Virus record (IMG/VR): IMGVR_UViG_2563366825_000009
Location: 1-16,694 of that record
Origin: a virus
Lineage: Duplodnaviria; Heunggongvirae; Uroviricota; Caudoviricetes
Length of the DNA stretch: 16,694 bases
Strand: one strand, 5' to 3'
Below, in pieces: positions 7,325 to 7,819 of the stretch; positions within the stretch are counted from its first letter, which is position 1; every line of letters starts with the position of its first letter. Made by a program: the position numbers and the translations under genes. The notes below the pieces were generated by a model. That model did not search any database. It had not been told where the DNA came from and was given only the letters and a program-made list of their open reading frames with translations.

Positions 7325-7369
7325 ATAACCACCAACGGTATTTACACAAAAATCACCGCAAGTTATATT
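7325..7369 (+). promoter_or_regulatory. pL-like promoter with OL-type operators
   Basis: -35 TTTACA (7341-7346), 17-nt spacer, -10 TATATT (7364-7369). Operator-like 17-mers at 7325-7341 (ATAACCACCAACGGTAT) and 7352-7368 (ATCACCGCAAGTTATAT) share the ATAACC / ATCACCGC half-sites of the OR sites and overlap the -35 and the spacer/-10, as at lambda pL. Confidence 0.65.
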
Positions 7370-7391
7370 TATTTCAAGCCAGAAACATCGC

Positions 7392-7406
7392 GCCCTTACA
7401 CAGGGC
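7392..7406 (+). promoter_or_regulatory. boxB-like stem-loop in the pL leader (GCCCT-TACAC-AGGGC)
   Basis: 5-bp stem identical to the lambda boxB stem (GCCCU/AGGGC) with a different pentaloop (UACAC versus GAAAA/GAAGA); about 15-30 nt downstream of the predicted pL start site. Confidence 0.35.
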
Positions 7407-7448
7407 TACATAAATCAGTCGTACGGCGCGACTTAACCCGCCGCAAAA

Positions 7449-7461
7449 TGCTCTTTAACAA
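7449..7461 (+). promoter_or_regulatory. boxA antitermination element matching the rrn-type consensus (TGCTCTTTAACAA)
   Basis: Exact 13-mer TGCTCTTTAACAA about 72 nt downstream of the predicted pL start and 42 nt after the boxB-like hairpin; the order boxB then boxA is the rrn-type arrangement. Confidence 0.5.
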
Positions 7462-7539
7462 TCTGGAGCTTTACAGCGTCAATGACCTGTTTAGACCCCT
7501 ACACGTAAACGTGCTGTATCATCGGGTGCGATCCGGTCG

Positions 7540-7819
7540 ATGAGAGAGTATCCCCGCGCGAGAGCGAGAACGGCGTGAGAACGGGCAACACTGGCAGGAA
7601 GTTGGCGCTGACCAATACAGGGAATGTTTTGGGGTGCAGGCAGCACCGCCAAAGCGTTACATGAAATACCGATTCCGTCCAAAACCTATAGCAAAAGTAA
7701 TGATTGGATACCATAAGACCAATCACAATCATTCTACGATTACCTATGCCGCACAAAGTTATGTTTTCAACACAACGTTCAAGTTTTCAACTGACTTCTT
7801 TATACTGCCGCGTAGGTAG
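7540..7819 (+). pseudogene. N-like antiterminator gene, apparently disrupted by a frameshift just after the start codon
   Basis: ATG at 7540 opens a 12-codon frame (MREYPRARARTA, stop 7576-7578). The adjacent frame, open 7544-7819, encodes ..PARERERRENGQHWQEV.., resembling the lambda N arginine-rich motif (TRRRERRAEKQAQWK). That frame has a TGA at 7541-7543 and no start codon. Position (about +165 to +440 from pL) fits N. Confidence 0.35.

Follow-up and report, generated by a model that had tools for sequence, protein, structure and literature searches.

Whether early antitermination in a lambdoid prophage depends on a broken N gene, or has no need of one, is the question raised by the leader downstream of pL in the 16,694-nucleotide (nt) stretch of tailed-phage DNA analysed here (IMG/VR record IMGVR_UViG_2563366825_000009, positions 1 to 16,694; hereafter the window). 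A first-pass annotation of this DNA had described a pL with operators, a lambda-boxB-like hairpin, an exact rrn-consensus boxA and, at the position expected for N, a short open reading frame (ORF) that seemed to be split by a frameshift from an arginine-rich frame. It left the choice between a recent N pseudogene, a sequencing error and an rrn-like mechanism relying on Nus factors only. Comparison with relatives disposes of the first two and leads to a different feature: shortly after boxA the leader encodes a conserved RNA of about 140 nt with six helices, and by sequence comparison the window carries a phi80-type nutL, to use the name given in the GenBank feature labels of phi80. We consider it reasonably likely that this untranslated pL leader, with its boxA and six-helix RNA, is a cis-acting antitermination signal that operates with no N gene.

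The supposed lesion is shared by a large number of phages. In a similarity search covering 5,426 complete Escherichia coli genomes and 50,697 phage records, positions 7371-7636 were recovered at 99-100% identity in about 100 Shiga toxin (Stx) phages and about 147 E. coli chromosomes, and the part from boxA onwards (7449-7636, 188 nt) at about 94% identity in phi80, HK225 and Klebsiella phage KO-TP1. Homology between the window and the phi80 group begins exactly at boxA, and the matched stretch is without an annotated gene in nearly all records listed. The 'frameshifted' stretch is base for base the same in P13374, FHI_NMBU_10, phi80, HK225 and KO-TP1, with the sole exception of an ATG that reads GTG in the phi80 group, and an identical 57-mer occurs in 104 of 150 loci of the RNA family described below (28 with ATG, 76 with GTG). 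Phi80 and HK225 are plaque-forming phages, P13374 is the Stx2a prophage of the O104:H4 strain, and TL-2011c, a relative of P13374, yields phage (PMC8044961). As the invariant 'lesion' is common to viable phages and the same letters stand in more than 100 independent phages and prophages, it is neither a recent frameshift nor an error in the sequence.

Beyond boxA the leader is conserved as an RNA structure. Positions 7472-7613 belong to a widespread and apparently undescribed family of structured RNAs (the phi80-type nutL, boxA plus six-helix fold), in which helices P0, P1 and P2 close a junction that bears the hairpins P3, P4 and P5 (Table 1). Relatives were collected in two scans. The most conserved hairpin, used as a pattern in IMG/VR, gave at least 119 loci, and a boxA...ACAGC...GACCC pattern run on one genome per species gave members in Enterobacter, Salmonella, Kluyvera, Huaxiibacter, Escherichia, Xenorhabdus, Morganella, Arsenophonus and Phlomobacter, together with a handful of chance matches in unrelated metagenome-assembled genomes. 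The helices vary by exchange of whole base pairs: P0 occurs as GCGTCA/TGGCGC, GCACAT/ATGTGC, GCACAC/GTGTGC and GCGCAC/GTGCGC; P1 as CCTGTT/GGCAGG, ACTGTT/GGCAGT and, in Edwardsiella phage Edno5, GTAAC/GTTAC; P3 as CACG/CGTG, CACA/TGTG, CGCA/TGCG and CGC/GCG; and P5 as CGC/GCG or CAC/GTG. P4 reads TCACCGG/TCGGTGA in phi80, TCATCGG/TCGATGA in the window, CCGCCGG/TCGGCGG in isolate LSJC7, TCGTCAA/TTGGCGA in Arsenophonus and GCACCAG/CTGGTGT in Salmonella, and in Morganella it is swapped for a short GCGCC/GGCGT hairpin. Independent compensatory events were recognised in Salmonella, Arsenophonus, Xenorhabdus, the LSJC7 isolate and phage Edno5.

The unbiased figures for this structure come from a plain MAFFT alignment of 25 diverse members that was not fitted to the fold. 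In this alignment 90.3% of the cells are in standard pairs, a share that drops to 29-40% if the 3' partners are displaced by 1-3 columns. Both sides have changed in 17 of the 35 pairs, and none of 500 shuffles equalled the real alignment in covariation score or in the share of paired cells. When 50 distinct sequences were aligned to the model, an alignment that by construction favours the structure, 94.8% of cells were paired and 19 of the 35 pairs were compensatory. A covariance model built from the 25-member alignment matches the window at 150 bits (E = 6e-40, with the window sequence in the seed); in the rest of the window nothing exceeded 9 bits with filters off, so that no second, nutR-like copy was recovered. 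The same model finds exactly one copy in each of 57 representative loci (114-150 bits), always downstream of pL and with no copy on the pR side, and finds nothing significant in the early region of HK022 or in the chance loci (best 14 bits, E = 0.57). No match to positions 7200-8000 reached the gathering score in Rfam 15, the only one at E <= 10 being DicF at 12.7 bits on the other strand; a tRNA/tmRNA scan of the cloverleaf-like junction with ARAGORN returned no tRNA-like gene, and a literature search by sequence strings and by topic returned no description of the fold. Separately, the phi80 copy is present in the cloning strains NEB5-alpha, XL10-Gold and DH10B, which carry phi80 remnants (e.g. 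NZ_CP110018.1, 1357948-1358135).

The fold also accounts for the features that had suggested an N gene. The 12-codon ATG ORF is where the first-pass annotation placed it, and a one-base shift in the CCCC run would indeed join it to the adjacent frame, which after the TGA at 7541-7543 reads ESIPARERERRENGQHWQ, as an ORF of about 92-93 amino acids (aa). However, this ATG and TGA form the 3' strand of helix P4 and the remainder of the short ORF crosses P5, while the arginine-rich frame, although present, is a by-product of the G/A-rich P5 hairpin. In diverged members the arginine-rich segment is replaced by hairpins that differ in length from that of phi80 by -8, -6, -3 or +1 nt, stops appear in every reading frame, the NGQHW motif falls into differing frames and no ORF is conserved over 7540-7578, yet the base-pairing potential is kept. 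The comparison indicates that the site holds no N gene and that this lineage never had one here; on these alignments, helices P4 and P5 gave rise to the ATG ORF and the arginine-rich frame by accident.

A pseudogene by recent frameshift, or a misread base in the AGAGAG or CCCC runs, can be given almost no credence on this evidence. The reconstructed frame does have a tryptophan at residue 18 and with it a superficial likeness to the arginine-rich motif of lambda N, and the prophage is indeed damaged elsewhere, by the insertion of an IS21-family element and the truncation of a restriction enzyme gene (see below). Against this stand the identical 57-mer in phages such as phi80, HK225 and P13374, the stops in all frames and the indels that are not multiples of three in diverged homologues, and the character of the product itself: the reconstructed protein of about 92 aa has no Pfam match at E <= 10 (N36 or N_peptide), where lambda N itself scores 1.5e-26 (N36), and its BLASTP alignment to lambda N (E = 0.37) covers an irrelevant segment. 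The 3' two thirds of the hypothetical 93-aa ORF are likewise not conserved, as P13374 diverges fully after 7658 and FHI_NMBU_10 has an in-frame TAG. The same sequence without N in related phages, together with an unconserved arginine-rich frame, is the very outcome by which the first-pass annotation had said its proposal would fall. Alternatively, an N-like protein could be made by programmed +1 ribosomal frameshifting at UAU-CCC-C. In favour of this, ribosomes are known to slip at CCC-C, neither the site nor the two frames vary among phi80-type and Eru1-type members, and the upstream codon is always ATG or GTG. This is very improbable. The A or G at 7540 covaries with T or C at its pairing partner 7522, 18 nt upstream (T/A in the window, C/G in phi80; C..G in 74 and T..A in 10 cases, with no other combination), so that the difference between ATG and GTG is one half of a compensatory pair change. 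Moreover, Edno5, loci L099, L102 and L124 and the Xenorhabdus, Morganella and Arsenophonus members lose the slippery site and both frames and keep the helices, and beyond 7640 the ORF differs among close relatives.

The second constant part of the element is boxA. The sequence at 7449-7461 is, as first described, an exact rrn-consensus boxA, the same 13-mer as in the rrnB leader, and by our arithmetic about 5e-4 exact matches would be expected in 2 x 16.7 kb. Of 94 unique family members, 93 have a boxA, always 11-14 nt ahead of the first helix of the fold (14 nt in the window). The strict form GYTCTTTAANA is present in 29 of the 94 and the phi80 variant GCTTTTTAACAA in 53. The pR leader of the window has no boxA-like match at up to three mismatches. 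On the 3' side of boxA no boxC-like UGUGUGGG was seen by eye, the conserved fold standing there instead. Members that are not of the phi80 type (e.g. loci L099, L102, L112 and L124, and Edno5) have a conserved AGCGCA(A) motif just 3' of P0; this motif could pair with an (A/C)GCGCU at the 5' edge of boxA, in a possible alternative structure that would mask boxA.

The leader upstream of boxA is variable among family members. The promoter and operators are where they had been placed, with operator-like 17-mers related to sites that recur in the cI-cro interval, and we infer a transcription start near 7376. Of the two hairpins that follow, the one at 7392-7406, 42 nt 5' of boxA, had been likened to lambda boxB. 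Its stem is that of lambda boxB; its UACAC loop, however, is incompatible with a GNRA-like fold, FHI_NMBU_10 carries a stem-breaking change, and the hairpin is absent from the phi80-type and other family members that were compared. The hairpin at 7424-7443 occupies the position of the rrn boxB directly 5' of boxA, an arrangement it shares with the rrnB leader, and among the family's 44 unique upstream flanks there are 28 in which a GC-rich hairpin of variable sequence stops no more than 8 nt short of boxA. Both hairpins of the window precede boxA, unlike boxB in lambda. A likeness between the 5' leader of the phi80 type (GCTGAGCGAAG) and the rrnB boxB region (GCTGAG-AAAAA-GCGAAG) was considered and found too weak to use.

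That the element belongs to antitermination is suggested in the first place by the annotation of phi80. GenBank entry M11919 (phi80, 1985) labels positions 661-938 (278 nt) a 'nutL regulatory signal', followed by an 'N protein' coding sequence and a 't-L1' terminator region, and the covariance-model match (721-862) lies inside this nutL. In the curated phi80 entry JX871397 the 'nutL boxA' is the boxA of the family and the 'nutL core' is exactly the P3 hairpin CACGTAAACGTG; N (98 aa), a rho-independent terminator tL1A and a rho-dependent terminator tL1B are also labelled, and no nutR is annotated on the pR side. The window resembles phi80 in the roughly 94% identity over 188 nt from boxA, in the position just downstream of pL and in the single copy without nutR, and the location downstream of cI and the OL operators is found in the window and its relatives alike. 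It differs in that the window phage and its intact relatives are without the phi80 N gene, in its unrelated 5' leader and operators, and in its boxA, which is the exact rrn consensus rather than GCTTTTTAACAA; moreover, the phi80 annotation covers boxA and one hairpin (P3) only, and not the six-helix fold.

The same annotation raises the possibility of a protein-dependent nut site, at which the fold would bind a phage antiterminator as in lambda, namely the phi80 'N' in phi80 and unrelated analogues elsewhere. In support of this, the phi80 records place a gene named N antiterminator downstream of their nutL, the order of RNA, small gene and tL1 in phi80 mirrors that of lambda, and the window prophage has a 97-aa ORF after cro with the basic stretch RKGNRARRSANTRLR. 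The distribution of the phi80 'N' does not agree with such a role. Its homologues were found in 22 phage records, none of them an Stx phage, and only 7 of 110 family loci have one in the 3.5 kb that follow the RNA, the other 103 having none; conversely, Salmonella phage STGO-35-1, Erwinia phage 59, Hafnia phage yong1 and Vibrio phage Seahorse have such a homologue with no RNA within 1.5 kb. Because the two distributions do not track each other, RNA and phi80 'N' are separable modules, and an obligatory partnership was rejected. The protein itself lacks an arginine-rich motif, and neither Pfam nor PHROG places it in an informative family. No gene family is universal downstream of the RNA, the commonest being the usual pL cargo of kil, gam and recombinases, and small proteins with an arginine-rich N-terminus occur there only sporadically, none of them universally. 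In P13374 and several others the first terminator follows the RNA after 130-160 nt with no ORF between. A requirement for a phage protein is thus judged unlikely.

Several proteins were looked at individually in this connection. Erwinia phage vB_EhrS_59 (L164) encodes, at 942-1259 and 1492-1791, both a gene for which the depositors report an HHpred match to lambda N and a phi80 'N' homologue, which suggests that the phi80 'N' proteins may be something other than N-type antiterminators. Two candidates in P13374 were set aside: ORF26, labelled 'antitermination', is classed by PHROG as an Ant-type anti-repressor, and ORF29 resembles the Rha/Ant regulators. The 97-aa ORF that lies right after cro in the window (5330-5623, minus strand; PHROG 852, of unknown function; ORF34 in P13374) is a weak candidate for an RNA-binding trans-factor. 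Phi80 has no counterpart at this place, where cII comes directly after cro.

Canonical GC-rich hairpins with a T-run, which resemble terminators, were counted in the 800 nt after the RNA: 75 of 111 non-redundant flanks have one on the sense strand, as against 23 of 111 on the antisense strand. In P13374 such a hairpin (AGACGCGCCAGCGTCT plus T7) precedes the first gene, at a distance of about 150 nt from the RNA. Across the family the first terminator stands anywhere from 127 to more than 1,400 nt away from the RNA, and whatever overcomes it must therefore act at a distance. According to Llarena et al. 2021 (PMC8044961), phages of the Eru1 group have no homologue of N, cII or cIII.

A leader RNA with another role altogether would be compatible with some of these observations, be it a pL attenuator that senses a ligand or factor, a stable small RNA set free by termination or processing, an element of RNA stability or translation, or a boxA that promotes Rho-dependent termination, as boxA is able to do in suhB (PMC5725501; PMC12360218). 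A multi-helix junction with invariant joining residues resembles aptamer-like RNAs, and in some members the span from promoter to first terminator would be a discrete transcript of 330-410 nt. Unlike in riboswitches, however, the variable spacing means that the terminator does not overlap the fold as an expression platform would, no known riboswitch, ribozyme or small RNA family in Rfam matches, and the strict coupling to boxA together with the nutL position points to a modification of the elongation complex. Such other roles are regarded as quite improbable. Apart from this, 26 of 98 unique downstream flanks contain a strong Shine-Dalgarno sequence and a mini-ORF of 1-5 codons (mostly MKH-stop), followed by AGCGGA, 20-60 nt past the 3' end of the RNA (L012, L130, L133, L138, L154, L142, L145 and others, but not the window); this mini-ORF could be a ribosome-loading or start-stop element tied to leader function.

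The preferred reading, a cis-acting antitermination signal without N, is based on the position of the leader at the place of lambda nutL, the nutL label in phi80, the rigid coupling of fold and boxA, the sense-strand terminators downstream and the report that such phages lack N, with no substitute protein found. It is well established that boxA serves to bring NusB-S10 to the elongating polymerase, and from the consensus sequence we infer that NusB and S10 bind this boxA in vivo. In such a scheme RNA polymerase would leave pL and transcribe one or two variable 5' hairpins, the consensus boxA and, 14 nt further on, the fold of about 140 nt; nascent boxA would bind host NusB-S10, and the fold, emerging next and tethered to the same elongation complex, would replace lambda boxB and N, or the put RNA of HK022. 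A termination-resistant complex would be stabilised in this way, and the terminators between the leader and the kil, gam and recombination genes would be read through, presumably by way of contacts between fold and elongation complex. The rrn-like option that had been listed third is strengthened by these results, but it was incomplete in that it missed the covarying RNA after boxA, which holds the supposed N start.

Several observations weigh against this reading. The RNA shows no similarity to HK022 put (the best blastn match of the core to the HK022 early region is 10 nt). In most members (the 53 of 94 mentioned above) boxA is off the strict consensus at one position. The window and FHI_NMBU_10, which make up a sub-lineage, have no terminator-like hairpin within 1.5 kb downstream by our criteria, and the folding energy of the single sequence is unremarkable against shuffles (z = -0.63), so that the evidence for the structure is comparative. 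Finally, boxA complexes of the rrn type are known to counter Rho-dependent and not strong intrinsic termination. Because of this, the fold would have to add an activity of its own: a model with Nus factors only is probably insufficient, and a put-like or N-like contribution of the fold would be needed. Perhaps boxA and fold form a self-sufficient, N-free processive antiterminator, a hybrid of rrn and put in which boxA would recruit the host Nus complex and the six-helix RNA would bind the elongation complex directly, allowing polymerase to read through both intrinsic and Rho-dependent pL terminators. We put this more specific version forward only tentatively, as a possibility with the odds against it.

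With lambda N/nut the window has in common a pL leader upstream of kil, gam and recombination genes, a boxA and terminators downstream; it differs in that there is no N protein, the hairpin precedes boxA, the UACAC loop is not GNRA-like, and a multi-helix RNA of about 140 nt stands in place of the 15-nt boxB. Lambda also has nut sites in both early operons, whereas none is found here in the pR operon. The rrn leaders have the order boxB-boxA-boxC and work with NusA/B/E/G, SuhB and S4. The boxA 13-mer of rrnB recurs in the window with a GC-rich hairpin just 5' of it, and no dedicated phage protein is apparent; after boxA, however, the window shows by eye no boxC but a large conserved fold, and while rrn complexes are known to act on Rho-dependent terminators, this family typically precedes hairpins resembling strong intrinsic ones. 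The put RNAs of HK022 are protein-independent antiterminators that bind the zinc-binding domain of the RNA polymerase beta' subunit. They, too, are cis-acting folded RNAs directly after pL in a lambdoid phage without N, and the role proposed here is comparable. With a length of about 70 nt and two stems, put lacks a boxA and is found after pL as well as pR (PMC9378689), whereas the present element measures about 140 nt, folds into six helices, has a boxA coupled to it and is confined to pL. The HK022 loci L126 and L127 gave nothing with our covariance model (R1).

The window as a whole represents the early region of an Eru1/Oslovirus-type lambdoid prophage, a group that includes the Stx2a phages P13374 and TL-2011c (O104:H4 and O103:H25). 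It is damaged, but otherwise than the first-pass annotation had proposed. Between cI and pL, the 100-aa ORF at the position where P13374 has an intact pair of methylase and endonuclease covers only positions 65-153 of the 154 of the BsuBI/PstI endonuclease profile; this restriction-modification moron is largely deleted, with the methylase and most of the endonuclease gone. Downstream of the leader, Pfam identifies the domains of an IS21-family element (rve/Mu-transposase C-terminal domain and IstB_IS21). Because window positions 7606-7847 and 10443-11096 are contiguous in the E. coli strain FHI_NMBU_10, the element lies between the leader and the first pL gene, and it cuts the leader RNA off from the pL operon in this prophage. 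Its left end (about 7890-8000) contains several GGAGATCAC-type repeats, probably transposase binding sites. Two further RNAs were matched by Rfam: the sok antitoxin RNA (RF01794, 118 bits) on the minus strand at 429-603, pointing to a hok/sok-type toxin-antitoxin locus in the replication-side region, and sRNA-Xcc1 (RF02221, 69.5 bits, above the gathering score) on the plus strand at 11157-11245, within an AntA/AntB anti-repressor ORF (11043-11921).

Table 1 Features of the pL leader and its surroundings in the window.
Feature	Position	Strand	Basis or remark
Cro gene	5654-5893	minus	Pfam
cI repressor gene, LexA-type	5953-6666	plus	Pfam
BsuBI/PstI restriction endonuclease, C-terminal remnant	6896-7198		Pfam
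Terminator-like hairpin	7217-7238		ends cI/moron transcription unit
Operator-like 17-mer ATAACCACCAACGGTAT	7325-7341		lambda type, over pL
pL promoter	-35 TTTACA 7341-7346; -10 TATATT 7364-7369	+	17-nt spacer; 10/12 promoter matches
Operator-like 17-mer AATCACCGCAAGTTATA	~7351-7367		lambda type, over pL
5' leader hairpin GCCCT-UACAC-AGGGC (first described as boxB)	7392-7406	+	Eru1/Oslovirus lineage only; outside conserved core
Hairpin CGGCG-(10 nt)-CGCCG	7424-7443	+	in minimum free energy and centroid structures; ends 5 nt before boxA
boxA UGCUCUUUAACAA (TGCTCTTTAACAA)	7449-7461	+	exact rrn consensus; sole exact match in window
Conserved structured RNA domain, ~140 nt, six helices	7472-7613	+	covariance-model match
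Helix P0	7476-7482 / 7602-7608		
Helix P1	7486-7491 / 7593-7598		
Helix P2	7496-7498 / 7583-7585		
P3 hairpin	7502-7513		
P4 hairpin	7519-7543		
12-codon ATG ORF	7540-7578	+	ATG at 7540; ends at TGA 7576-7578
P5 hairpin (CCG-CGC-GAGA-GCG-AGAA-CGG)	7554-7573		GAGA loop 7560-7563
Arginine-rich frame (ARERERRENGQHWQ)	7556-7597	+	encoded by P5 (CGC-GAGA-GCG, AGAA internal loop, CGG) and conserved junction AACGGGCAACACUGG
IS21-family element, 2.6 kb	7848-10442	+	istA 8055-9596, istB 9608-10357
First pL-operon gene	10469-11020		183-aa protein of unknown function

It is common for a lambdoid phage to have no N gene, and early antitermination in such phages is acknowledged to be an open matter, a 2025 survey having only guessed at a 'put-like' mechanism for one of them (PMC12315714). 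To judge from its sequence, the leader described here would be a further variant among the cis-acting antitermination signals of the nut, put and rrn types, and a covarying RNA of about 140 nt rigidly coupled to a consensus boxA is a widespread candidate for read-through without N. A more general lesson is that a structured, G/A-rich RNA may mimic an arginine-rich coding frame. The element, absent from Rfam, is present in the classical phage phi80 and in Stx2a phages of high-virulence enterohaemorrhagic and enteroaggregative-haemorrhagic E. coli (EHEC/EAHEC). If the more specific hybrid of rrn and put is true, it would provide the early-antitermination mechanism of phi80-type phages and of Eru1/Oslovirus Stx phages, including the O104:H4 outbreak phage, and its RNA would form a class of antiterminator of its own. 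If the element controls expression of the pL operon, it would influence the induction and the recombination functions of toxin-converting phages, and the few RNAs known to reprogram RNA polymerase would gain a further one.

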